DNA of 41,184 nt from a virus (IMGVR_UViG_3300045988_018086:1-41184), one strand, 5' to 3'; shown: positions 9,034-33,714, numbered from the stretch's first letter. A program made the numbers and translations. Notes: a model not told the origin generated them from the letters alone.

Positions 9034-9060
9034 AAAAGGGGCCGAAGCCCCTTTGTTTTT
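9034..9060. terminator. Intrinsic terminator hairpin (AGGGGC-CGAA-GCCCCT) followed by T-run, downstream of major capsid gene
   Basis: GC stem plus T5/A4 tracts. Confidence 0.55.
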
Positions 9061-10066: not shown

Positions 10067-10693
10067 TTATCCTCGTTTGCCGTATTTGGCGTTAAGTTTT
10101 TGCTGGATTACGTCCGCACCACCGGCCCCGCCAGTAGAATTTTTGTTACCGGAAGCCCCGCCGCCGGTTGCTGCATCTGCTTTAATCAGATGCGAAAATG
10201 CTTTGTGCTCACGCAGATACTTTTTAAATTGCTCTGCGTCGGTGGTGATGACATTACCATCTGCACCTGTGAACTTGGTCACAACGTCATCGCCGTCAAA
10301 TTCGGTCTTGACCATCATAGCGATAATATCCGCTGCGCTCTCATCAATCAACATGCCAGACAACTGGCTGATAACTGATTTACGTTCTGCGCCGAGGATA
10401 CGCTCAGCCATTTTGCTAATCTTACCGTCTTTCTCGGCGAGTACTGGCTCATACTGACTGCGCAACGTTTTCTCGAATGCCTCAAGTTCGCCGTTCTGTT
10501 TTGCGCGTTCCTGTTCGGCTTTCAGCTTCGCATCTGCGGCTTCTTTCGCAGCAGCGGCAGCAGCTTTCTTTTCAGACAAGAGCTTCTCGTTGTTAGCTTT
10601 AAGACCGGATACCAGCGCGTCAACTTCTTCTTTGGTAAACGTGGTCTTAGTCTCTTGTTGTTCGATAGTTTCGTCTTTCACTTCTTCGCTCAT
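10067..10693 (-). CDS. Scaffolding protein (start at internal ATG 10693)
   Basis: Acidic N-terminus, Ala/Lys/Glu-rich coiled-coil region, located directly upstream of major capsid gene; AGGGGA RBS. Confidence 0.6.
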   Translation of the reverse strand: MSEEVKDETIEQQETKTTFTKEEVDALVSGLKANNEKLLSEKKAAAAAAKEAADAKLKAEQERAKQNGELEAFEKTLRSQYEPVLAEKDGKISKMAERILGAERKSVISQLSGMLIDESAADIIAMMVKTEFDGDDVVTKFTGADGNVITTDAEQFKKYLREHKAFSHLIKADAATGGGASGNKNSTGGAGGADVIQQKLNAKYGKRG

Positions 10694-10772
10694 CAGTATG
10701 TCCCCTGGACGTTGGAATCCGGGCCACCCGGATTTACATGTCAAGAATAAATTATTCCAACATACAAGGCAA

Positions 10773-11036
10773 CTATTCCAGAATATTCCTCACGTAATCC
10801 TGCAACATGAACACTTTAAGTCTCAGTTGCCGTACACATTCTGCGTTCTGGACGTCAATAGCTAAATCCTCGTCCGCGTCGTTACTTGGCAGTGCCAGTT
10901 TGCACGGTGGCTGCATCATCGTCGTATCCGGGGATGGAATTGGCGTTTGCGACGGCGCGGGACTTGAGCTGCACGCGCTCAGGGTCAAAAGTGCACACGC
11001 TGCGGCCAGGCGTTTTAATGTACTTAACGACTTCAC
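10773..11036 (-). CDS. Outer-membrane spanin (Rz1-like lipoprotein), partly overlapping the i-spanin gene in another frame
   Basis: Signal peptide with lipobox LSAC, proline-rich mature part; GTG start with AGAGGT RBS; overlaps 10882..11268. Confidence 0.65.
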   Translation of the reverse strand: MKSLSTLKRLAAACALLTLSACSSSPAPSQTPIPSPDTTMMQPPCKLALPSNDADEDLAIDVQNAECVRQLRLKVFMLQDYVRNILE

Positions 11037-11268
11037 GGGTGATTACCTCTGATTTCGTCTTGCCTTCGTTATCAGCGGCGGCGGCCTTCGATTCATCCTG
11101 CTGCTGCCGTTGTGTTTTCTTAGCTAACTCAGCCTGTGCTTTCTGCTGTTGCTGCGAAACGAGATTCGCCCGGCCTCCGTTCCAGCCGCTGCGATACTGG
11201 TAGATGCCGTGTGCGTAAGCCAGGATGATGAAACATGCTCCCGCTACGACAGTTGCTTTAAGATTCAT
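10882..11268 (-). CDS. Inner-membrane spanin (Rz-like)
   Basis: N-terminal transmembrane segment followed by Gln/Ala/Lys-rich helical periplasmic domain; AAAGGGGA RBS. Confidence 0.65.
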   Translation of the reverse strand: MNLKATVVAGACFIILAYAHGIYQYRSGWNGGRANLVSQQQQKAQAELAKKTQRQQQDESKAAAADNEGKTKSEVITREVVKYIKTPGRSVCTFDPERVQLKSRAVANANSIPGYDDDAATVQTGTAK

Positions 11269-11290
11269 GTTTCCCCTTTCTCGATAAGTA

Positions 11291-11320
11291 AAGCCCCGCC
11301 TTAAAGCGGGGCTTTACTTA
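11291..11320. terminator. Hairpin (AAGCCCCGC-loop-GCGGGGCTT), candidate terminator/attenuator at the end of the conserved leader
   Basis: 9-bp GC-rich stem; moderate U-run on both strands. Confidence 0.4.
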
Positions 11321-11375
11321 TCATTTAAACATAGAAACGGCGTAATCTCAGTAAACCAGTTACTTTTTACACAAG

Positions 11376-11525
11376 CAATAGAGTATGGCCCTTCCGAACG
11401 CGTCAGCGTAACTACACTCAGGACTTACGTCCCGCTCCGTTACCTGCCCGCGCCGCGGTCGCTTGTTCATACTTCACAAGCTCAGGTGGAGCTTAGCACA
11501 TTTTTGGTGAAAAGTCAACTATTCG
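11376..11525 (-). promoter_or_regulatory. Copy A of a ~145-bp conserved element: promoter TTGACT-N17-TGcTAAGCT (minus strand, approx 11518 to 11490) plus conserved transcribed leader
   Basis: Blocks identical or near-identical to 23041..23190 (same orientation); promoter hexamers at same spacing in both. Confidence 0.5.
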
Positions 11526-11582
11526 AATAGTTTATTCCAACATTTACAATTGAGTGGAATAACTGGAATAATCACAGGCACT

Positions 11583-11607
11583 AAAAAGCCCCTTTCGGGG
11601 CTTCAGT
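11583..11607 (-). terminator. Intrinsic terminator (AGCCCC-TTTC-GGGGCT plus T5) after the Ig-like protein gene
   Basis: Stem and U-run on minus strand. Confidence 0.55.
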
Positions 11608-12069
11608 TTATTCTGGCTTAGTAACCTTCGCTGCTTTACTTACGGCCTCTATACCATCGGCATCAGTGACTTTAACGAAGTATTCACCAACTGCGTTAAC
11701 CGTCAGAGACAGAGCCTCTTCCGGGGCGTTTACCACTTCCTTCCCGTCTTTGTACCAGGTCAGCGCATATGGTGCTTTGCCCGCCTTAACTTCGACAGCG
11801 ATATTTGCGCTGCCGTCTGCCAGTTCCGTGTCTTTCGGTTGTACGGAGAAATACACATCACCGGCATCCGCCAGGTACTGAATCTCATAAAGCATACCTG
11901 CCGCTGGCAGCGCAATACCGGTCTTGTCCGCAAACGGCATATCGTCCACTGGTGTTCCGAGTACACTTTCGTCTTCAATAAACACCACGTTCTCGCCAGA
12001 GCCAGACACGCGGGAGTACTGTACTACGCGACGCGAAGGTACGTCGGTTACTTTGAAAAAGCCCATCAT
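11608..12069 (-). CDS. Ig-like domain protein (possible capsid decoration protein)
   Basis: Beta-rich sequence with ALTWYKDG motif typical of bacterial Ig-like domains; position after head morphogenesis gene. Confidence 0.45.
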   Translation of the reverse strand: MMGFFKVTDVPSRRVVQYSRVSGSGENVVFIEDESVLGTPVDDMPFADKTGIALPAAGMLYEIQYLADAGDVYFSVQPKDTELADGSANIAVEVKAGKAPYALTWYKDGKEVVNAPEEALSLTVNAVGEYFVKVTDADGIEAVSKAAKVTKPE

Positions 12070-13112: not shown

Positions 13113-13156
13113 GTGCCCTCCTGTAGTATCACCAGTGTAACGCATAAAAATAATAT

Positions 13157-13185
13157 TTGCAGACACCAATATAATAGGGTACTAT
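13157..13185 (+). promoter_or_regulatory. Promoter TTGCAG-N17-TACTAT with AATAG-N4-CTATT operator, near-identical to 2793..2821
   Basis: Identical 24-nt core CCAATATAATAGGGTACTATTCA; 27 nt upstream of ATG 13213. Confidence 0.5.
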
Positions 13186-13212
13186 TCATTTAACTTAAAC
13201 AGGAGATGCAAA

Positions 13213-13734
13213 ATGGTTACTACAGTAATTACTTTCCCCGCGTATGTAGGGGCGAAAATCTGCAGGGCTAAAAATGACGTACGCTACTACCTGAACGCTT
13301 TTTACATAGACCCTGAAGGGTTGATAGTGTCTACGGACGGTCATAGATTGTTCTGCGACAATGTGAAGACAAACGTTGAAACGGGAGTTCTCATTGACAC
13401 CAAAGGGAGGGAGCCTTCTAAATTTAACTACGCGGAGGTAGACCACGACAACGGCAGCGTTTCTTTCTATGACGATAGTCGTGCGCTTATATGTACACTT
13501 CCGGTGGATGTTGTAGACGGAAAATTTCCTGACTGGCGACGCGTGGCGCGCATTACACCGGATGCCGTCGGTAGCATAGGGTTCACTCTGCGCTATTTGG
13601 CAGACGCGTACAAGATTTCTAAGGCATACAAAAATGAAATTGCTCGTTTCGATTTCCAGGACCAAACCAGAGGATGCAAAATATCGTTTTCAGACACTGC
13701 GTTTATGGTGCTAATGCCCGCAAGATTTAAATAA
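13213..13734 (+). CDS. DnaN (beta sliding clamp)-like protein, truncated: domain II plus C-terminal half of domain III, no domain I
   Basis: Blocks DVRYYLN..TDGHRL, VDGKFPDWRRV and C-terminal MVLMPARF match E. coli DnaN DVRYYLNG..TDGHRL, VDGRFPDYRRV and YVVMPMRL as I recall that sequence; AGGAG RBS; own promoter and terminator. Confidence 0.55.
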   Translation: MVTTVITFPAYVGAKICRAKNDVRYYLNAFYIDPEGLIVSTDGHRLFCDNVKTNVETGVLIDTKGREPSKFNYAEVDHDNGSVSFYDDSRALICTLPVDVVDGKFPDWRRVARITPDAVGSIGFTLRYLADAYKISKAYKNEIARFDFQDQTRGCKISFSDTAFMVLMPARFK

Positions 13735-13738
13735 AACT

Positions 13739-13760
13739 AAGGCCCCATTGCGGGGCCTTT
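13739..13760. terminator. Bidirectional terminator hairpin (AAGGCCCC-ATTG-CGGGGCCTT)
   Basis: GC stem with T-runs on both strands between convergent genes. Confidence 0.55.
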
Positions 13761-19053: not shown

Positions 19054-19539
19054 TCATTTAACAGCCCTCCCAATAGCCTCAGCCTCTTGCCACGGCTTAC
19101 CTTCGAACAGCGCCAGACGCCCGGCGGTACGGCGACGCAGGCCAAGTAGTGGTTTGCCGTTCTGGTTGATGAACAGCGCCAGCTTAGCCCGCAGTGTTGC
19201 AGTATCACCAGAACGCAGTGCCTTGCCTGTGCCCGTAGTAGACGCAATCACGCCAGCACCTGCGTTATACACCAGGTCACACACCGCATCGAACTGTGCC
19301 TGTGTAAGCGAATGGTGCGCCGCGGCATCAACCGCAGCTACGGCTTTAGACATATCGCGATTCAGTAACAGGAGGCCTTGCCCCGGGGTGATGGTCTTAC
19401 CCGGGGTTACGTCCGGTCCGTAGTGCCCGTAGCCAATAGTCAGGTACTTCTCGTTCGGCGTAGCACGATACGCAGTTCCGCGGAATCCCTCAAATGCAGC
19501 GGTAAAATGCAATCCATTATCTGAAATATTTCGAGACAC
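19054..19539 (-). CDS. Endolysin, phage lysozyme (GH24, T4/P22 lysozyme-like); GTG start at 19539
   Basis: EGFRGTAY...TIGYGH motif; GGAGG RBS 8 nt before GTG; follows two holin-like genes. Confidence 0.65.
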   Translation of the reverse strand: MSRNISDNGLHFTAAFEGFRGTAYRATPNEKYLTIGYGHYGPDVTPGKTITPGQGLLLLNRDMSKAVAAVDAAAHHSLTQAQFDAVCDLVYNAGAGVIASTTGTGKALRSGDTATLRAKLALFINQNGKPLLGLRRRTAGRLALFEGKPWQEAEAIGRAVK

Positions 19540-19789
19540 GCTTATATCCTCCGTATGACAACCACGCCTGACGAATCTGGCGCAGCGCAACTAGTGTGAT
19601 TAACGTCCCGGGCAACGCAGGCGACATGCTGCCCTGTAGCAGGTGGATACACCCGGCGGCGCAGACGATAGCGGTCAGGATATAGAGCACCCTACCAAAT
19701 AGCCCGTCGTCAACGCTGGGGTGATATACATTAAACAGCGATGTGCCCCCGATTGCCAGCATACCGCCGAACCAGAATAGCTCATTCAT
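19517..19789 (-). CDS. Holin-like membrane protein (second of pair; holin or antiholin)
   Basis: Two or three hydrophobic helices, charged C-terminus, directly upstream of endolysin. Confidence 0.45.
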   Translation of the reverse strand: MNELFWFGGMLAIGGTSLFNVYHPSVDDGLFGRVLYILTAIVCAAGCIHLLQGSMSPALPGTLITLVALRQIRQAWLSYGGYKRVSKYFR

Positions 19790-20090
19790 CCGGGCCTCCT
19801 CGACGTGAGATGTATTCTCCGGCGACGATACCAGAGAGACGGGAATAGATAGGCATCCAGAGAATGGCGATGATGAATCCGAGGCCAGCTATCTCGCGCT
19901 CGCCGGTAATACCGAACCATTGGGCAGCGAGAGGTGCACCAAATACGGCGCAGGTGAAGCCGGTTGCGATAAAGCAGAAGCCGTCGATAGGGCCGGAAAT
20001 AACGGACTTATGTTGTCGTAGTCCGATAACCCCTCCGGCTAGTGCGGCAGCGAGAAGCCACCCCGTCACTGTTTCAGTAAATTTATCCAA
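19782..20090 (-). CDS. Holin-like membrane protein
   Basis: Three hydrophobic segments, ~100 aa, start of lysis cassette. Confidence 0.45.
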   Translation of the reverse strand: MDKFTETVTGWLLAAALAGGVIGLRQHKSVISGPIDGFCFIATGFTCAVFGAPLAAQWFGITGEREIAGLGFIIAILWMPIYSRLSGIVAGEYISRRGGPDE

Positions 20091-21518: not shown

Positions 21519-21548
21519 CTCTGTCTCTCCTCTCGCTTGTGTAAATGA

Positions 21549-21577
21549 ATAGTAGCCTATTCTATCTTAGTGTGCAA
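21549..21577 (-). promoter_or_regulatory. Promoter TTGCAC-N17-TACTAT with AATAG-N4-CTATT operator (minus strand)
   Basis: Same architecture as the promoters at 2793, 13157 and 22843. Confidence 0.45.
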
Positions 21578-21584
21578 GTAAATT

Positions 21585-22808: not shown

Positions 22809-22842
22809 AACCCTCACTCCTCTGTCTCGTCCCGATAAGTGA

Positions 22843-22871
22843 ATAGTATCCTATTATGTTGGGGCGTGCAA
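22843..22871 (-). promoter_or_regulatory. Early promoter TTGCAC-N17-TACTAT with AATAG-N4-CTATT operator (minus strand)
   Basis: Hexamers, spacing and operator shared with 2793, 13157 and 21549 promoters. Confidence 0.5.
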
Positions 22872-23040
22872 GAGATTAGTTACGTTGCCGTTGTGATTCT
22901 TTCGTTTCTTAAAGGAGTACGCAACGCAGTGGGTGGGCGTTAGCCCACCCCAGCGGAGTGAAGTACTCTCTACCTCACTCACTCACGGCAACTATAGAAA
23001 CTTTTAATTATCAGTGACTTGGGTATTTAGGCGGGATTAA

Positions 23041-23190
23041 CAATAGACTTTGGCCCTTCCGAAAGCGCCAGCGGAACTACACTCAAGTGCCTAATGGCAC
23101 GCGTTGCGTTCCCTGCCGCTCCGCGGTCGCTTGCGATATCTCACAAGCTCAGTGAAGCTTAGCATATTTTTAAGTAAAAGTCAATACTAG
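23041..23190 (-). promoter_or_regulatory. Copy B of the ~145-bp conserved element: promoter TTGACT-N17-TGcTAAGCT (approx 23184 to 23156, minus strand) plus conserved leader
   Basis: Homologous to 11376..11525 with identical promoter hexamers. Confidence 0.5.
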
Positions 23191-26367: not shown

Positions 26368-26387
26368 AATTATTTTAGAAAAGCCCG

Positions 26388-26416
26388 TTGACAAGTGAAT
26401 AGTTCGCTATTATAGT
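26388..26416 (+). promoter_or_regulatory. Promoter TTGACA-N17-TATAGT with AATAG-TTCG-CTATT operator in the spacer
   Basis: Consensus -35, 17-nt spacer, perfect 5-bp inverted repeat. Confidence 0.6.
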
Positions 26417-26447
26417 TAGCCCATACCAAACGAGAGGAGAATAAATA

Positions 26448-26918
26448 ATGTTAGAGAAATTCTTAGTATTACTGGAACGTTTCGTAGTTGCACATGAACT
26501 GATTGCTGCGAACAGTGCGAAACAAGTTGTCGTTGCCAAAACTGCAACAATAGAGCCTACTGTTGTGAAAGAAGTAACGAAAGAAATCCCGGTAGAAGGT
26601 GAAGACACCATTGACACTAAACCAGCAGAAGAAGAGAAGCCGAAGCGCAAGCCGCGTAAAGCTAAAGTAGAGGAGCCAACGCCAGAGCCGGAAGAAGAGA
26701 AAGAAGAAGTCGATTACCAGTCTCTGCGCGACCAGATTCAGGCTATCGACGATGCGATTAACGAAGGCCCAAGCGATGCTGCGTGCGACGATTCTGACGA
26801 ACTGCTGGAAGAGTTTACCGGTAAGAAGATGAAGATTGCAGCGATTAAAGACGAAGACCTGGCTGAGTATCTGGAGCGCCTGACGGCAATCAAGAACAAG
26901 TATTTCGAAGAAGAATAA
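26448..26918 (+). CDS. Highly acidic protein of unknown function
   Basis: 156 aa, Glu/Asp-rich with Pro/Lys linker; expressed from operator-controlled promoter. Confidence 0.45.
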   Translation: MLEKFLVLLERFVVAHELIAANSAKQVVVAKTATIEPTVVKEVTKEIPVEGEDTIDTKPAEEEKPKRKPRKAKVEEPTPEPEEEKEEVDYQSLRDQIQAIDDAINEGPSDAACDDSDELLEEFTGKKMKIAAIKDEDLAEYLERLTAIKNKYFEEE

Positions 26919-27234: not shown

Positions 27235-28481
27235 TTTTAAAAGAACGCGGTGGCAATAACGATGTGCACGCATTACTGTCGCCGTCTGGGGCTAAAAAGT
27301 GGCTGGCGTGCAGTGCATCACTGGCCTGTGAAAAAGATATTCCTAACACGTCAGGTAAAGCCGCGGTATTAGGCACAGCCATGCATACAATAGCCGAGGT
27401 CCATTTAAATCAGTACATCAAAGGCACTGCACTGCCGTTAGATCGTGAAGTTGGTGCTTATGTACTGGACGAGGGCAAAGGCCAGATTAAGGCGCTAATC
27501 AGTCCGATGAAAGGTGCGGTACTGATTACGGCGGACATGATTGAGCAGGTGCGCAAGTACACCGACTACTGCAAAGCGATTATCGATGTGGCGACTTACG
27601 CCAAACTCGAGATGCGTGTCAATCTTACTGAGGTGTTGCATCCGGGGTATGAAGGCGTTGAGACGTTCGGAACTGCTGACCTTGTTGCCGTCCAGGAACT
27701 GGCTAACACCGACGAGCACATGCTTATCATCGGCGACCTGAAAACTGGACGGCATCGTGTCGAAGCGAAAGAAAACAAGCAGCTTATGCTCTATGCTCTC
27801 GGTGTTTACCGCCGGCTCAAGAGACGTTATAACATAACGACTGTTCGTCTGGTCATCTTCCAGCCGTACGCGGGCGGTGCGTCGGAGTGGGACATCTCGG
27901 TTGAAGGCCTGGAACTGTTCGCTAAGTTCGCACAGAAACGGGCACTGTTAGCGCTTGATGCTTATTTCCGTGGAAAGAAGAACCTGAAAGCGTCGGACTT
28001 TAAACCGTCGGTCGATGGTTGCCAGTGGTGCCGGTTCTCTGAACAGTGTGCCGCGCGTACAAAGACGGTTAATTCTGTACTGGCGGAAGAACTTGAAGAC
28101 GACTTTGTGCTGGAACTGACGACGGAGCAACTCGTAGTTGAGTATGAGAAGTTGCCGCTGTTACGCCAGCACATCGACAAGGTTGAGAAAGCGATGACCG
28201 CCGCATTGCATTCCGGTAAGAAAGTTCCTGGGTACAAGCTGGTTGAAGGTAAGATGGGCAACCGTGCGTGGAAAGATGCCGATGCGATTGAAGTGTCACA
28301 CGGCGACATTCTCAAAAAAGAGGTATTGATGACCCCTACGGAGGCAGCAAAAGTTCTTTCGGCGGATGAGATGGCAGCGCTTGAGCCGTTTATTACCCGT
28401 AAGCCAGGCGCACCATGTGTCGCAACGGCAGACGACAAACGTCCTGAGTGGAATCAGGTTAGTGAAGAAGATTTGGAATAA
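27231..28481 (+). CDS. PD-(D/E)XK-family exonuclease (DUF2800/Cas4-RecB-like) with C-terminal Cys cluster; start at ATG 27231
   Basis: N-terminal SPSGAKKWLACSAS motif, GDLKTG...E.K core, C-terminal CQWCRFSEQC. Confidence 0.6.
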   Translation: MILKERGGNNDVHALLSPSGAKKWLACSASLACEKDIPNTSGKAAVLGTAMHTIAEVHLNQYIKGTALPLDREVGAYVLDEGKGQIKALISPMKGAVLITADMIEQVRKYTDYCKAIIDVATYAKLEMRVNLTEVLHPGYEGVETFGTADLVAVQELANTDEHMLIIGDLKTGRHRVEAKENKQLMLYALGVYRRLKRRYNITTVRLVIFQPYAGGASEWDISVEGLELFAKFAQKRALLALDAYFRGKKNLKASDFKPSVDGCQWCRFSEQCAARTKTVNSVLAEELEDDFVLELTTEQLVVEYEKLPLLRQHIDKVEKAMTAALHSGKKVPGYKLVEGKMGNRAWKDADAIEVSHGDILKKEVLMTPTEAAKVLSADEMAALEPFITRKPGAPCVATADDKRPEWNQVSEEDLE

Positions 28482-28485
28482 AGTG

Positions 28486-28514
28486 TTGACACCTGAATAG
28501 TTAGCTATTATAGT
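28486..28514 (+). promoter_or_regulatory. Promoter TTGACA-N17-TATAGT with AATAG-TTAG-CTATT operator in the spacer
   Basis: Near-identical to 26388..26416. Confidence 0.6.
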
Positions 28515-28567
28515 TCTAATCACTGGCCGGGCAGTTCCCGGAGTAAACTGAAAAGCGAGAAATCACG

Positions 28568-29194
28568 ATGGGTATTAAACTGAATCTGCGTAAAGTAAAC
28601 ACTGCATGGGTTAACGTATTCGAACGCGAAAAAGACCGTGAAAACGATGATGGCTCAATCACTAAAGGCCAGTACAGCGCGACTATCATCCTGCCGTCTG
28701 GCCACGCACAAATCGACGCGCTCTACGACACCGTTTACGCTGTGGTTGAAGAAGCGTTGGGCGCAGCTGCCGCTGAGAAGTGGATGAAGTCCAACTACGG
28801 CGAAGGTAAGCACATGGATAAATGTGCGATTAAAGACATTGCCGAGCGCGACAATCCGTTTGAAGACTTCCCGGAAGGCTTCTACTTCAAGGCGAAGGCA
28901 CAGAAACAGCCACTGATTGTAACCTCTAAAAAAGGCGAGACTCAGGTAGAACAGGACTTCAATGTAGACGGCGAACAGATTGAAGGTGAACAGGTTTACA
29001 GCGGCTGCGTCGCTAACGTAAGCGTTGAAATCTGGTTCAGCCAGAAATACAAAGTCCTCGGCGTTAACCTGCTGGCTATTAAATACGTCGGCGAAGGTAA
29101 AGCGTTCGGCGGTTCTAAAGTAGCTGCAAGTGTCGACGACCTGGAAGACGAAGAAGAAGATGAAGCACCGCGCCGAGAACGTCGTCGCCGTTAA
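28568..29194 (+). CDS. ssDNA-binding protein-like (DUF2815-type) with acidic C-terminal tail
   Basis: Acidic tail DDLEDEEEDEA; paired with upstream PD-(D/E)XK exonuclease. Confidence 0.55.
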   Translation: MGIKLNLRKVNTAWVNVFEREKDRENDDGSITKGQYSATIILPSGHAQIDALYDTVYAVVEEALGAAAAEKWMKSNYGEGKHMDKCAIKDIAERDNPFEDFPEGFYFKAKAQKQPLIVTSKKGETQVEQDFNVDGEQIEGEQVYSGCVANVSVEIWFSQKYKVLGVNLLAIKYVGEGKAFGGSKVAASVDDLEDEEEDEAPRRERRRR

Positions 29195-29213
29195 TATCTG
29201 AATTAATTTAACT

Positions 29214-29233
29214 AAGGCCCTTCATTGGGCCTT
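29214..29233 (+). terminator. Intrinsic terminator (AAGGCCC-TTCATT-GGGCCTT plus T5)
   Basis: Stem and U-run after SSB-like gene. Confidence 0.55.
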
Positions 29234-29253
29234 TTTACTAAGGGTCAAAAATA

Positions 29254-31434
29254 ATGAGTTACCTGTTCTTAGACTTTGAAACATTCTCCGAAGCCGATTT
29301 GAAGAAAGTCGGCTCCTACGCTTACGCCGAACATCCAACCACCGAAGTTCTAATCTGCACATATGCTTTTGACGACGAGCCTGTGCAGGTATGGGATTGC
29401 ACCAACGGCAGCGACATGCCGGGCGATTTGCACCGCGCGTTACGCCGTCTGGTGAAACCAAACAGCCGTATTAAGATGGTGTGGCACAACGGCTCAATGT
29501 TCGACAGGCCCATCATGAAGCACTGCTGGGGTTTTGATATTCCCGTAAGCAACACCATTGATACGATGATTTGGGCGTTTCGTCACGCGCTGCCGGGTTC
29601 ACTCGACGCATTGTGCGAAGTGCTTGGCGTGTCTGCAGACAACGCGAAAGACAAACGAGGCAAAGCGCTTATTCAGCGTTTCTCTAAACCGACGCCGAAG
29701 AACTACAAAATTCGCCGCTACACTGCTGAAACGCACCCGGATGAGTGGGCGCTGTTCATCAAGTACGCCGTTAGCGACATCACCGCGATGCGTGAAGTGT
29801 TCCATAAGTTGCCGCGTTGGGGTAACTCCGAGTTCGAAGACCGTGTACTGGAACTGGACCAGTTAATTAACGACCGCGGGTTTAAGGTCGACGTTGCGCT
29901 GGCGGAAGCCGCAATTGAAGCTGTGGAGAAACACAAGGCACAGTTACAGGAAGAAGCCCAACGTAAATACGGCGGCTCGCTTACAGGTAAGGACTTCCTG
30001 CCGATTCTGCGTGAACTGGCGCCTGCGCATCGCATCCACAACGCGCAGAAGTCTACGCTTAACGACCTGCTTGCTGACGATGATTTACCGGACGACGCCC
30101 GCACGATTATAGAAATGCGCCTCGGGGCGGCATCCACTGCGTCAACGAAATATAACCCGCTGCTGTTAGGCCGCTCGTCTGACGACCGCCGTCGCGGTTG
30201 CATCCAGTATGGTGGGGCTAAACGTACGTTACGATTTGCGGGTAAAGGCTTCCAGCCGCAGAACCTGGCGCGTGGGTACTATCACGATGATGAACTGGAT
30301 AAAGGTATTTCAGCATTACTTAAGGGCCGAGCACATCGCCGTTTTGATGTAGCCAAGCTAACGGCATCTACGGTTCGCAGCTGCATTATCCCGGAAGCCG
30401 GGTATAAGTTTGTCGTCGCCGACTACTCGAACGTTGAAGGCCGCGGTTTGGCGTGGCTGGCTGGCGAAGAAACCGCGCTTGATACGTTCCGTGCCGGGCT
30501 GGATATTTACTGCGTAACCGCAGGCAAGATGTTCGGCATGGAGCCGGATTACATTAAGAAAGAACGTAAAGACTTACGCCAGATTGGTAAGGCATGCGAA
30601 CTTGGACTTGGCTACGCGGGTGGTGTCGGCGCATTCGTACAGTTCGCCAAGAACCTCGGCCTTGACCTTGTTGATATGGCAAAAACAATGGACGGGACTT
30701 TCCCCGACCACATCTGGGCTGCTACCGCACGTGGATATGAGTGGGCGCGTATTCAGGAAGCCAAGCGACCACCACGTCCAGGTGAAAATGATGACCGACC
30801 ATCTTATATTCTTGATAAGAAAGTGTGGCGTACCTGCGACGCTATCAAGCGTATGTGGCGTGAGTCACACCCGGAAACAGTAGCTTTCTGGCGGGATATT
30901 GAAGACGCAGCTATGGCAGCTATCCGCAATCCGGGCAAAGAGTTCACCGCAGGGCCGCGGGGAGTTAAGTTTTCGCGCAACGTAGAAACGGACAACAACG
31001 GCAACAAAGTCGCCGGTTGGTGGTTGCGTATGACGTTGCCGTCTGGTCGAGTTATGTCATACCCTGGCGTCGGGTTAAGCGTGTCGAAAGAGACAGACGA
31101 AGACGGGAAGGTGTCTACCAACGTGCGCATCAAGTACCAGGGCGAAAACCAGTTAACCCGTCAGTGGGGCTTCCAGTACACCTACTCTGGTAAACTGGTG
31201 GAAAACTGCACTCAGGCGCTGTGCCGTGATTTGTTGGCTAATGCACTGCTGAACGTCGAAGCAAACGGCTACCCGATTGTGCTTCATGTTCACGATGAGA
31301 TTATCTGCGAGACACCAGATTTACCAGAATACAATGTCGCAGAACTGGAACGATTGATGTGCGAATTACCAGAGTGGGCCGAGGGGTTCCCTCTTGTAGC
31401 AGAAGGCGCGGAGATGAAGCGTTATGCCAAGTAA
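29254..31434 (+). CDS. DNA polymerase, family A, with N-terminal 3'-5' exonuclease domain
   Basis: Exo I DFET, Pol motif A DYSNVEGR, motif B RQIGKACELGLGYAGG, motif C HVHDE. Confidence 0.85.
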   Translation: MSYLFLDFETFSEADLKKVGSYAYAEHPTTEVLICTYAFDDEPVQVWDCTNGSDMPGDLHRALRRLVKPNSRIKMVWHNGSMFDRPIMKHCWGFDIPVSNTIDTMIWAFRHALPGSLDALCEVLGVSADNAKDKRGKALIQRFSKPTPKNYKIRRYTAETHPDEWALFIKYAVSDITAMREVFHKLPRWGNSEFEDRVLELDQLINDRGFKVDVALAEAAIEAVEKHKAQLQEEAQRKYGGSLTGKDFLPILRELAPAHRIHNAQKSTLNDLLADDDLPDDARTIIEMRLGAASTASTKYNPLLLGRSSDDRRRGCIQYGGAKRTLRFAGKGFQPQNLARGYYHDDELDKGISALLKGRAHRRFDVAKLTASTVRSCIIPEAGYKFVVADYSNVEGRGLAWLAGEETALDTFRAGLDIYCVTAGKMFGMEPDYIKKERKDLRQIGKACELGLGYAGGVGAFVQFAKNLGLDLVDMAKTMDGTFPDHIWAATARGYEWARIQEAKRPPRPGENDDRPSYILDKKVWRTCDAIKRMWRESHPETVAFWRDIEDAAMAAIRNPGKEFTAGPRGVKFSRNVETDNNGNKVAGWWLRMTLPSGRVMSYPGVGLSVSKETDEDGKVSTNVRIKYQGENQLTRQWGFQYTYSGKLVENCTQALCRDLLANALLNVEANGYPIVLHVHDEIICETPDLPEYNVAELERLMCELPEWAEGFPLVAEGAEMKRYAK

Positions 31435-31555
31435 ACTGATTATCGCGGTACTGGCGGGATTTGCTGCCGGTGTCTACTGTCACGAGGGTCAATACGGCAT
31501 GATGGTTGCCATATTGGGCATGTTCATCGCAATTTATCTGTGGGTGCTGGAATGA
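31424..31555 (+). CDS. Micro-ORF 1: 43-aa single-pass membrane peptide
   Basis: Hydrophobic sequence; ATG overlaps end of polymerase gene; stop overlaps next ATG (ATGA). Confidence 0.35.
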   Translation: MPSKLIIAVLAGFAAGVYCHEGQYGMMVAILGMFIAIYLWVLE

Positions 31556-31641
31556 AAATCTACTGGTTTTATGAAGAAGACTGTCGAATCTGTCCGCGCT
31601 GCGGTATTGAACATACGAAACGGGAGGGGTGCGTACTATGA
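31552..31641 (+). CDS. Micro-ORF 2: 29-aa zinc-ribbon-like peptide (C-x2-C-x2-C-x9-C)
   Basis: ATGA coupling at both ends; four Cys. Confidence 0.3.
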   Translation: MKIYWFYEEDCRICPRCGIEHTKREGCVL

Positions 31642-31790
31642 CAATGTTTGTATTTCGGACGATAGTAACCATGCTCGCACTGTTACTCGGGGCGGGAATA
31701 GCCGCGATGTTCTGTTACGGCCTGTTCTTTAAGTTTGCCGGTGTTGCCGTTCTAGGCGGGGCGTTTATAACTTGGGTTCTGCACTCATGA
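31638..31790 (+). CDS. Micro-ORF 3: 50-aa membrane protein
   Basis: Two hydrophobic stretches; ATGA coupling to VRR-NUC gene. Confidence 0.35.
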   Translation: MTMFVFRTIVTMLALLLGAGIAAMFCYGLFFKFAGVAVLGGAFITWVLHS

Positions 31791-32071
31791 CCCCGGAAGG
31801 CAAAATACAGAAATACGCAAAAGAGCGATTCGAGGCCATTGGTGGCCTCGTTCGTAAACTTTCCTACGAGGGGCGTTCCGGCGCTCCCGACCTGCTGGTA
31901 ATTCTCCCAGACGGCATAGTCTGGTTTGTCGAGGTGAAGAAAGACGAAAACACGAAGCCAGACCCACACCAGCTACGTGAGCATGAGCGTATGCGCAAAC
32001 GCGGCGCGAATGTTTTTGTCGTTGGTTCGTTTAAACAGGTTGACGACCTAATAGCGAGCTATTATAGTTAA
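31787..32071 (+). CDS. VRR-NUC domain nuclease (PD-(D/E)XK fold)
   Basis: PDLLVILPDG..FVEVK motif. Confidence 0.6.
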   Translation: MTPEGKIQKYAKERFEAIGGLVRKLSYEGRSGAPDLLVILPDGIVWFVEVKKDENTKPDPHQLREHERMRKRGANVFVVGSFKQVDDLIASYYS

Positions 32072-32101
32072 TCACACACCAACAATATAAGGAATTGAGA
32101 A

Positions 32102-32293
32102 ATGAAACACGAATATGACCGCAAGCCAGCACGTGACATCGTACCTGGCGATATGATTTTCAACGTTAAGACCCGCCACCCTGTTGCCGTTGATACGGTG
32201 TACGTCGAGTCGAACGGTAAACTGGTTATCGAAGATGTAACTGGTAACGTTACGGCGTTCGGGCGTAAAGAGTTAGTTCTGGTGCTGAAATGA
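32102..32293 (+). CDS. Hypothetical protein
   Basis: ORF with ATGA overlap to helicase gene. Confidence 0.4.
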   Translation: MKHEYDRKPARDIVPGDMIFNVKTRHPVAVDTVYVESNGKLVIEDVTGNVTAFGRKELVLVLK

Positions 32294-33714
32294 GTAAGTT
32301 TCAAAGGCGCGAGTACCAGAAGCTCATGACTTCGTTCATGTTGCGGCACCATCGCTGCAACATATGGGCAAGCATGGGCGCCGGGAAGACGGGCAGTGTC
32401 CTGTGGGCTTTAAACCGACTGTTCCGCAATGGGCAACTTAATGACGACGACCGCGTGTTAATCCTCGCCCCGTTGCGTGTTGCGTCTGGCACGTGGCCCG
32501 CAGAGCAAGAGAAATGGAACTTTCCCTGTCTGAGTGTCGTTGACGCGACCGGTTCAGAGAAGCGCCGCATCGCGGCGCTGGAATCAGACGCTAACGTGGT
32601 GTGTACAAACTACGAAGTTATCGAATGGCTGATTGACTACTACGGCAAAGACGACTGGCCTTTTACCGTTATCGTCGCCGACGAAAGCACGAAGCTGAAA
32701 TCATTCCGCAGCCGTTCAGGTGGAAGCAAGAGGGCGAAGGCGCTAAGTAAAGTTGCGTTCGGTAAGGTTAAGCGTTTCATTAACCTGACTGGTACGCCGT
32801 CGCCGAACGGCCTCAAGGACTTATGGGGCCAGAACTGGTTTATCGACGCGGGTGAGCGCCTCGGTTCTTCATACACAGCATTCACCGACCGCTGGTTTAA
32901 CTCGGTACAGAAAGGCAAATCAGCGATGGCGCGTGAGTATCATGCGCGCCCTGGTGCGGATAATGAAATCCATCAGAAGATGAAGGACATTAGTCTCACG
33001 ATTGACGCCGCTGAGTGGTTCGGTTGCGAAGCGCCAATTATCGTCCCTGTTGAAATTGACCTGCCGAAGAAAGCACGTCAGGCGTACATAGATATGGAGG
33101 AAAAGTTATTCGCAGAACTGGAGAGCGGAGAAGTTGAAGCCGCTAACGCGGCGGCAAAGACGTCAAAGTGCTTGCAAATTGCTTCCGGTGCCGTGTATGT
33201 GACGGGTGACGACGGAGAAGCAACCAAAGACTGGGAGAAAGTGCACGACACGAAACTGGATGCGCTGGAGTCAATTGTTGATGAGTTACAGGGCGCGCCG
33301 TTACTGGTGGCCTATCAGTTCAAGCACGAACTGGAGCGCATCCTTAAGCGATTCCCGCAGGCGCAGGCGTTCGCCAAAGGTGCCAAGGGTAATAAGCAGA
33401 TGGAAGCGTGGAACCGTGGCGAAATCGAAATCCTATGCGTGCACCCCGCGTCAGCCGGCCATGGCTTGAATTTACAGGACGGCGGACATCATCTGGCGTT
33501 TATTTCGCAAGGCTGGAACCTTGAGCACTATTTGCAGGTTGTCGAGCGTATAGGCCCGGTGCGCCAGAAGCAGGCGGGCCACGAGCGACCAGTGTTCATC
33601 TATCACATCGTTGCTAAAGACACGCTGGACGAGGTTGTTGCCTCGCGTACTGACGAGAAGAAATCGGTCCAGGAAGAGTTGCTTAATTACATGAAGAGAC
33701 GAGGTAAGAAATGA
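32290..33714 (+). CDS. Superfamily 2 helicase (SNF2/DEAD-like)
   Basis: Motif I GAGKTG, motif II DESTKLK, motif III LTGTPSPNG, C-terminal helicase domain. Confidence 0.75.
   Translation: MSKFQRREYQKLMTSFMLRHHRCNIWASMGAGKTGSVLWALNRLFRNGQLNDDDRVLILAPLRVASGTWPAEQEKWNFPCLSVVDATGSEKRRIAALESDANVVCTNYEVIEWLIDYYGKDDWPFTVIVADESTKLKSFRSRSGGSKRAKALSKVAFGKVKRFINLTGTPSPNGLKDLWGQNWFIDAGERLGSSYTAFTDRWFNSVQKGKSAMAREYHARPGADNEIHQKMKDISLTIDAAEWFGCEAPIIVPVEIDLPKKARQAYIDMEEKLFAELESGEVEAANAAAKTSKCLQIASGAVYVTGDDGEATKDWEKVHDTKLDALESIVDELQGAPLLVAYQFKHELERILKRFPQAQAFAKGAKGNKQMEAWNRGEIEILCVHPASAGHGLNLQDGGHHLAFISQGWNLEHYLQVVERIGPVRQKQAGHERPVFIYHIVAKDTLDEVVASRTDEKKSVQEELLNYMKRRGKK

Follow-up and report, generated by a model that had tools for sequence, protein, structure and literature searches.

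Why does a phage carry its spanin genes in the head module, away from its holin and endolysin, and are these genes controlled separately from the rest of the lysis genes? The question is raised by positions 10773-11268 of a stretch of viral DNA of 41,184 nt (IMGVR_UViG_3300045988_018086:1-41184), the whole of which we call the window and from whose first letter all positions are counted. Judged by its sequence, the window is a Kagunavirus (Guernseyvirinae), namely a K1H-like coliphage, and when sequences were compared the spanin region was ~99% identical to coliphage K1H and Kagunavirus relatives. The pair very probably represents the 'Jersey' two-component spanin of Kagunavirus, located in its ancestral position, from where, as we infer, it opens the late head/tail unit. 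Annotations, a spanin catalogue and publications already cover the pair itself, its overlap and its distance from holin and endolysin, all of which are ordinary. The only potentially new item at this locus is a structured leader RNA which precedes the two genes.

The i-spanin gene (Rz-like) is positioned at 10882..11268 on the minus strand. It starts with ATG behind the ribosome-binding site AAGGGG and encodes 128 aa. The o-spanin gene (Rz1-like; 10773..11036, minus strand) starts with GTG, has the ribosome-binding site GAGG 9 nt upstream and encodes 87 aa. It is read in the +1 frame, overlaps Rz by 155 nt and continues for 109 nt past the Rz stop. Among the PHROG profiles, Rz matches phrog_2536 'Rz-like spanin' (E=1e-56), and Rz1 matches phrog_5672 (7e-30) and phrog_1267 (6e-20), both with the same description. 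The single hydrophobic stretch of Rz is N-terminal (residues 5-23, ATVVAGACFIILAYAHGIY, mean Kyte-Doolittle 1.72), and beyond this transmembrane helix the protein has a probably helical region rich in Q, K, E and A, and a single periplasmic cysteine, Cys92. The Rz1 signal contains K2, K8 and R9, an uncharged core LAAACALL and the lipobox L-S-A-C with Cys22, followed by Ser at +2. It satisfies the PROSITE PS51257-type rule, and the +2 residue is not Asp. The mature part of Rz1 has a Pro-rich N-terminus and two periplasmic cysteines, Cys45 and Cys67. These two and Cys92 of Rz are kept in every homologue compared; at least one periplasmic cysteine for intermolecular disulfides is the rule for two-component spanins (PMC6139136). 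The preliminary description had read this stretch as an Rz-like inner-membrane spanin and an overlapping Rz1-like lipoprotein with the lipobox LSAC, and the coordinates, the PHROG matches and the transmembrane stretch agree with that reading, as does the lipobox at Cys22, which is kept through sequence change in relatives.

Conservation was followed in 47 related IMG/VR loci with Rz identities of 62-99%. The signal peptide of Rz1 turns over in relatives and the lipobox is nevertheless retained, as LSAC, LASC (with the Cys shifted by one residue), LSGC or ITGC. In the portion of Rz that does not overlap Rz1, variation at the three codon positions was 0.067/0.052/0.156, and in the Rz1-only portion it was 0.054/0.017/0.164. 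Since the third codon position is in excess in both non-overlapping parts, both frames are under purifying selection. Rz1 is also the sole credible ORF with a lipobox in the whole window, which means that no second spanin is hidden beside the endolysin.

One locus of the set has a divergent pair (L038, 10001-10589 of IMGVR_UViG_3300045988_013393). Its i-spanin is shorter (118 aa), the overlap with the o-spanin is only 14 nt, and the o-spanin has an unrelated signal peptide with the lipobox ITGC. This pair resembles the 'separated' FSL_SP-031 variant of Kongari et al.

General protein family collections were silent on the two proteins. Neither Rz nor Rz1 had a Pfam match at E<=0.01, including PF03245 (lambda Rz) and PF06085 (Rz1), and no NCBIfam model scored above its cut-off, the P2_Rz1 model reaching E=0.05 and 13.7 bits where its cut-off requires 27. 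A PDB sequence search with both proteins found no relative. Therefore, the placement of Rz and Rz1 comes from PHROGs and direct homology only. The single-sequence AF2 model of Rz has a helix at residues 3-62 (pLDDT ~66-84) and a C-terminal half below 50. With an overall pLDDT of 58 the model was too poor for a fold search.

Direct homology places the pair clearly. Rz and Rz1 are 99% and 100% identical to gp06 and gp07 of K1H (locus L004), and the identity to Jersey is 66%. In the K1H RefSeq record both ORFs are called 'Rz-like spanin', with 'Hoc-like head decoration' on one side and 'head scaffolding protein' on the other. Kongari et al. 2018 assigned K1G, K1H, K1ind1-3, Jersey, SETP3 and others to their 'Jersey' families, in which the i- and o-spanin genes are of the overlapped type, with an overlap of 155 bp for Jersey (PMC6139136). 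The i-spanin of 128 aa, the 155-nt overlap and the neighbouring genes are the same in the window, and we see no substantive difference from the Jersey and K1H spanins. A protein search over 50,697 phage records found the spanin family in 665 of them. In the Dhillonvirus Pubbukkers, the homologous pair lies between the MuF-like and the major head genes, and in a lambdoid Klebsiella phage a homologue with 39% identity stands inside a classical Q-lysozyme-spanin cassette, a context which links the family with lysis. In the literature searched we found no experimental test of any Jersey-family spanin. Many GenBank genomes of Kagunavirus and Jerseyvirus have one or both spanin ORFs as 'hypothetical protein' or the o-spanin uncalled, and in the P AB-2017 record Rz is called as an incomplete ORF of 219 nt.

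Phage lipoproteins such as Cor and Llp exclude superinfection. The pair could have another envelope function, such as that of a superinfection-exclusion lipoprotein with its membrane partner, and the position unusual for lysis genes as well as the lack of a spanin match in Pfam and NCBIfam would fit with that. We consider this highly improbable. The pair has every architectural hallmark of two-component spanins, its homologue sits within the classical lambdoid lysis cassette just described, and the curation as spanins was done by the very group that defined them. Furthermore, the genome offers no alternative spanin candidate, yet the phage has a Gram-negative host, a holin and an endolysin.

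In lambda, the periplasmic domains of Rz and Rz1 assemble into one complex across the whole periplasm; intact murein keeps it inert, and once the wall is degraded it fuses the inner and outer membranes. The pair in the window shares with Rz/Rz1 the combination of a type-II inner-membrane protein and an outer-membrane lipoprotein that is read from the same DNA in the +1 frame, the periplasmic cysteines and, by analogy, a presumed role in membrane fusion. It differs in having no detectable sequence similarity to the lambda proteins, in being overlapped whereas the lambda genes are embedded, in the longer o-spanin (a mature form of 66 aa, with a probably helical C-terminus) and in lying outside an S-R-Rz cassette. 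T4 is a precedent for unlinked spanins (PMC6139136), although its PseT.3/PseT.2 pair is of the separated type, belongs to an unrelated family and lies outside the head module.

By analogy with lambda, the i-spanin would be held in the inner membrane by its one N-terminal helix, and the o-spanin would be exported, lipidated at Cys22 and sorted to the outer membrane, as the Ser at +2 predicts. Their periplasmic domains would join across the periplasm and be restrained by intact murein until the holin releases the endolysin and the wall is degraded, whereupon the complex would fuse the two membranes with each other. Lysis is not timed by spanins, for which it is sufficient to be present before the holin fires. 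In the proposed scheme, the spanins would be transcribed first in the late head/tail unit, starting at a conserved sigma-70 promoter and passing a structured leader and a hairpin, and would accumulate alongside the capsid proteins, with the holin genes 8 kb away still timing lysis. Since prior accumulation is all they need, their placement among the most abundantly expressed late genes poses no problem.

The position between the scaffold and the Ig-like genes and the distance of about 8 kb to the holin/holin/endolysin genes, both given in the preliminary description, were found as described. On the minus strand, the scaffold gene (phrog_206) occupies 10067..10744 and the gene of the Hoc-like/Ig protein (phrog_3945, with weak matches to Ig_3/BiPBP_C) occupies 11608..12069. 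The lysis set, also on the minus strand and with PHROG matches to phrog_2359, phrog_2508 and phrog_7, spans 19054..20090. It comprises a holin (19782..20090), a holin/antiholin (19517..19789, assigned by PHROG) and an endolysin (19054..19590 as the longest ORF; PF00959 lysozyme, E=8e-27) whose true start, by K1H, is probably near 19542. The start of Rz and the end of the endolysin gene are 7.8 kb apart, on the same strand. The separation of the spanin pair from holin and endolysin is stated in PMC6763661 and likewise in the fBC-Eco01 paper (PMC9825357). Across the 47 loci the order holin-holin-endolysin...TerL-portal-MuF-Hoc-Rz-Rz1-scaffold was constant wherever the fetched sequence reaches. 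In Guernseyvirinae the position between Hoc and scaffold belongs to a fixed, ancestral order of the genes, which Dhillonvirus shares. Together with the placement of the genes in other lineages, this makes the head-module position a lineage trait and not an oddity of this genome.

Two places around the pair vary. The gap between Hoc and Rz is 339 nt in the window (11269-11607), 507 nt in K1H and up to ~925 nt elsewhere (loci L004-L049). The extra DNA lies upstream of the promoter described below, and in fBC-Eco01 it contains two small ORFs on the opposite strand; the gap has the look of a hot spot for insertions. The window also has an inserted opposite-strand gene of 173 aa that separates the portal gene from the MuF-like head gene (13213-13734, plus strand) that matches PHROG 3007 'RusA-like Holliday junction resolvase' and, weakly, polymerase processivity factors. 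It is flanked by a copy of a promoter motif (13154-13192) and a bidirectional terminator (13739-13759). K1H does not have this gene, and its portal and MuF-like genes are 37 nt apart.

We then come to how the pair would be transcribed. Directly after the stop of the Hoc-like gene lies an intrinsic terminator, GAAGCCCCGAAAGGGGCTTTTT (11586..11603, minus strand, repeat family D2), which is predicted to close the terminase-portal-MuF-Hoc unit. It is followed by a predicted sigma-70 promoter of the extended -10 type (11490..11531, minus strand), which was recognised by sequence and conservation. The promoter consists of a -35 box TTGACT (11518-11513), a 17-nt spacer, the motif TGc (11498-11496) and a -10 box TAAGCT (11495-11490). 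The -10 box is weak, with 3/6 consensus matches, and leans on the TGn motif; these 3/6 matches are the reason that a simple promoter scan missed the promoter. In the Salmonella-type relatives the -35 box, the TG, the T-A...T of the -10 box and the spacing are retained (TAGACT-17-TACGCT) and the spacer sequence is different. Independently of this, the fBC-Eco01 genome paper also has a host promoter predicted at this site.

A dyad, ACTATTCGAATAGT (11531-11518, minus strand), abuts the -35 box of the spanin promoter, and the Salmonella-type phages have ACTTT-N6-AAAGT instead. The dyad may be a regulator-binding site. Its half-site AATAGT recurs in a repeated motif, tgAATAGT-N-CTATTat, which occurs in promoter-like sequences on both strands (2790-2828, 13154-13192, 21539-21581 and 22836-22872, with further sites at 26374-26417, 28472-28515 and 32026-32069) and matches the 'phage promoter' consensus published for fBC-Eco01. 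The palindromic core of the motif suggests an operator common to several promoters.

Immediately downstream of the promoter, the window encodes a structured leader of 116 nt (11374..11489, minus strand; copy A), with a fold z-score of -5.4 and a covariance-model score of 142 bits. It starts within a few nucleotides of the predicted start site and folds into a short stem-loop followed by a long stem-loop of three helices. Invariant in it are ACCGCGG, UUCGGAAGG and UAUUG. The covariance model (R1) was made from 30 distinct sequences, and a 3-nt indel precludes an ungapped comparison, so that the alignment is model-based. In this alignment, which is fitted to the model, 93% of the cells paired against 27-43% in controls with slid partners, the covariation score was 0.246 against at most 0.036 in controls, and seven pairs had double changes. 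Salmonella-type phages have an iso-structural leader with ~53% identity. All 46 loci with upstream sequence carried copy A directly upstream of Rz.

The leader is also conserved in sequence. Sixteen loci have exactly the same leader (100% identity), with Rz coding sequences that are only 83-96% identical. Of 181 GenBank phage records, 180 have the 262-nt leader region at an identity of 94.7% or more, and for a 901-bp query that covered the spanins and their flanks, the leader included, the GenBank identities spread down to 60-80%. No Rfam family matched anywhere in the window at gathering thresholds, and the relaxed search of the leader copies gave sub-threshold matches to terminator hairpins only; tRNA and tmRNA genes were not found in the window either. 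A search of IMG/VR with the pattern ACCGCGG-N45-72-TTCGGAAGG returned at least 119 stretches, and the model was run on 100 of the 104 loci newly obtained from them. Thirteen matched, twelve of which, where the contig was listed, lay on Guernseyvirinae contigs that had already been seen; the thirteenth was the locus L212. Among the IMG/VR candidates selected by this pattern, the leader RNA was not found outside Guernseyvirinae.

The leader is followed by a perfect 17-bp hairpin, GATAAGTAAAGCCCCGC-TTTAAG-GCGGGGCTTTACTTATC, at 11283..11322 (minus strand), 14 nt upstream of the Rz ATG and ahead of the ribosome-binding site of Rz. Its stem is compensated between relatives (GCCCUGC/GCAGGGC, GCCCGGC/GCCGGGC and GCCCGAC/GUCGGGC). 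In Kagunavirus the hairpin is terminator-like, having a fair U tract (tail UUUACUUAU), and in Salmonella-type phages its U tract is poor. It could be a terminator or attenuator, a processing site or an mRNA stabiliser.

Behind the pair, the stop of Rz1 is separated from the ATG of the scaffold gene (10693) by a spacer of 79 nt, which contains another conserved hairpin (10716..10734, minus strand), whose arms are AAUCCGGG/CCCGGAUU in the window and ACACCGGG/CCCGGUGU in Salmonella-type relatives, a compensatory change. Since this hairpin has no U tract, the spanins are probably co-transcribed with the scaffold and capsid genes; the hairpin may serve in processing or stabilising the transcript. 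The repeated motif TGTTGGAATAA...TTGAC after the Rz1 stop was considered as a second promoter, for the scaffold gene, and rejected. Its two copies are within chance (14 of 100 shuffles), and the TTGACA is not retained in Salmonella-type relatives, unlike the adjacent hairpin. Further downstream, a canonical bidirectional intrinsic terminator (9035-9054) stands directly after the major capsid gene. The head-tail genes continue past it on the same strand, which means that termination there is partial or that it is read through.

The promoter and the structured RNA have a second copy in the window (copy B; 23039..23185, with the RNA at 23039-23155, minus strand; 104.8 bits, repeat family D3). It heads a leftward operon of small early genes followed by holin and endolysin. 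The RNA of copy B is 77% identical to copy A, with compensatory changes in the apical hairpin, and the hairpin of copy B has no U tract. About 15 of 41 relatives have copy B, and it is absent from K1H. In two loci (L017 and L107) the same RNA variant occurs at both sites, which suggests exchange between the two leader copies.

The preliminary description had noted a conserved leader and hairpin directly upstream of Rz, which the covariance model, the covariation and the stem compensation confirm, and had proposed that the spanins may be controlled separately from the other lysis genes. For the latter the evidence is divided. The pair has its own predicted promoter, leader and hairpin after the Hoc terminator, but the same promoter and leader head the holin/endolysin operon, and this position of copy B suggests shared and not separate control. 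Separate control of spanin expression is plausible on the sequence features. The most economical reading of the same features would have the late head/tail unit begin with Rz and Rz1; the spanins may also be read from upstream transcription. The only RNA-seq study of a Kagunavirus is coarse and does not mention the spanins, and in its temporal classes the lysozyme gene falls together with the MuF-like and capsid genes (PMC12645636). Separate transcription would in any case be of little consequence, because spanins do not time lysis.

What could the leader do? One tentative answer is that it is a cis-acting regulatory RNA of Guernseyvirinae that gates the late spanin-capsid-tail operon. It would act on RNA polymerase in the manner of a put RNA or as the target of a phage factor, and give read-through at the hairpin 11283-11322 and at later terminators. 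A common switch-on of spanin, capsid and tail genes that does not involve holin and endolysin would follow, which we rate as equally tentative. The layout of promoter, structured RNA, terminator-like hairpin and genes speaks for such a role, as do the structure backed by covariation, the full identity of the RNA in the 16 loci with diverged Rz and the iso-structural form, 53% identical, in Salmonella-type phages. The terminator after the capsid gene (9035-9054) needs read-through for the tail genes, and the two copies behind near-identical promoters recall HK022 putL/putR (PMC9378689). A Q-family antiterminator, whose lack would also fit, was found neither in the K1H annotation nor among nine small leftward ORFs of the window and an unconfirmed HTH candidate (26375..26650), all of which match PHROGs of unknown function or none.

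The likeness to putL/putR extends to two related structured RNAs with stem-loops just downstream of sigma-70 promoters, the leader copies preceding terminators and long operons. On the other hand, the leader has 116 nt against ~70 nt for put, it shows no sequence or covariance similarity to put, and its second copy is dispensable in most relatives; a put-like activity here would be an analogy. The identity of the leader with the HK022 put RNA itself was rejected: the model R1 had no match at E<=1 in HK022 27500-33500, a region in which putL was located by a published primer and putR is expected from the gene map, and the putL sequence has no clear similarity to the leader. The absence of copy B from most relatives, including K1H, also weakens the case for cis control, as do the lack of a good U tract in the hairpin of Salmonella-type phages and the same element at the head of the holin/endolysin operon, which favours common control. 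A further parallel is the lambda late region (PR'-qut-6S RNA-tR'), in which a strong promoter is followed by a ~200-nt leader, a terminator-like hairpin, and lysis and then head/tail genes. Here too a leader of ~200 nt ends in a terminator-like hairpin, with lysis and then head/tail genes behind it. In contrast to lambda, only the spanins follow and not holin and endolysin, and the conserved element is an RNA structure and not a DNA qut site.

Less probable still, and in our view unlikely, is that the leader is a free-standing gene for a trans-acting small RNA of ~200 nt that ends at the hairpin 11283-11322. The spanins would then merely lie downstream and be expressed by read-through or from upstream transcripts, which we likewise find unlikely. 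Its own promoter and the terminator-like hairpin ~200 nt downstream would suit a small RNA, the sub-threshold Rfam matches are weak and all fall on the terminator ends of small RNAs, and a second genomic copy is typical of small-RNA paralogues. However, none of the 46 loci with upstream sequence has copy A anywhere but directly in front of Rz. The upstream unit is closed by a terminator, and Rz would be left promoterless if all transcripts ended at the hairpin. The hairpins of copy B and of Salmonella-type phages also have no U tract, which does not fit a terminated small RNA.

For the phage group, the finding on the spanins confirms the existing annotation and the view that lysis genes need not cluster, for which T4 and the genome papers on Guernseyvirinae had already won acceptance. 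It is of use to annotators, as the o-spanin is often uncalled or left as 'hypothetical' in Kagunavirus, Jerseyvirus and Dhillonvirus. If the cis-acting role of the leader is true, the expression of spanins and virion would depend on an RNA element that is more strongly conserved than the genes behind it. If the leader controls read-through, it would be the second natural case in which late transcription is under the control of an RNA, here in a group of virulent coliphages widely used in phage therapy.
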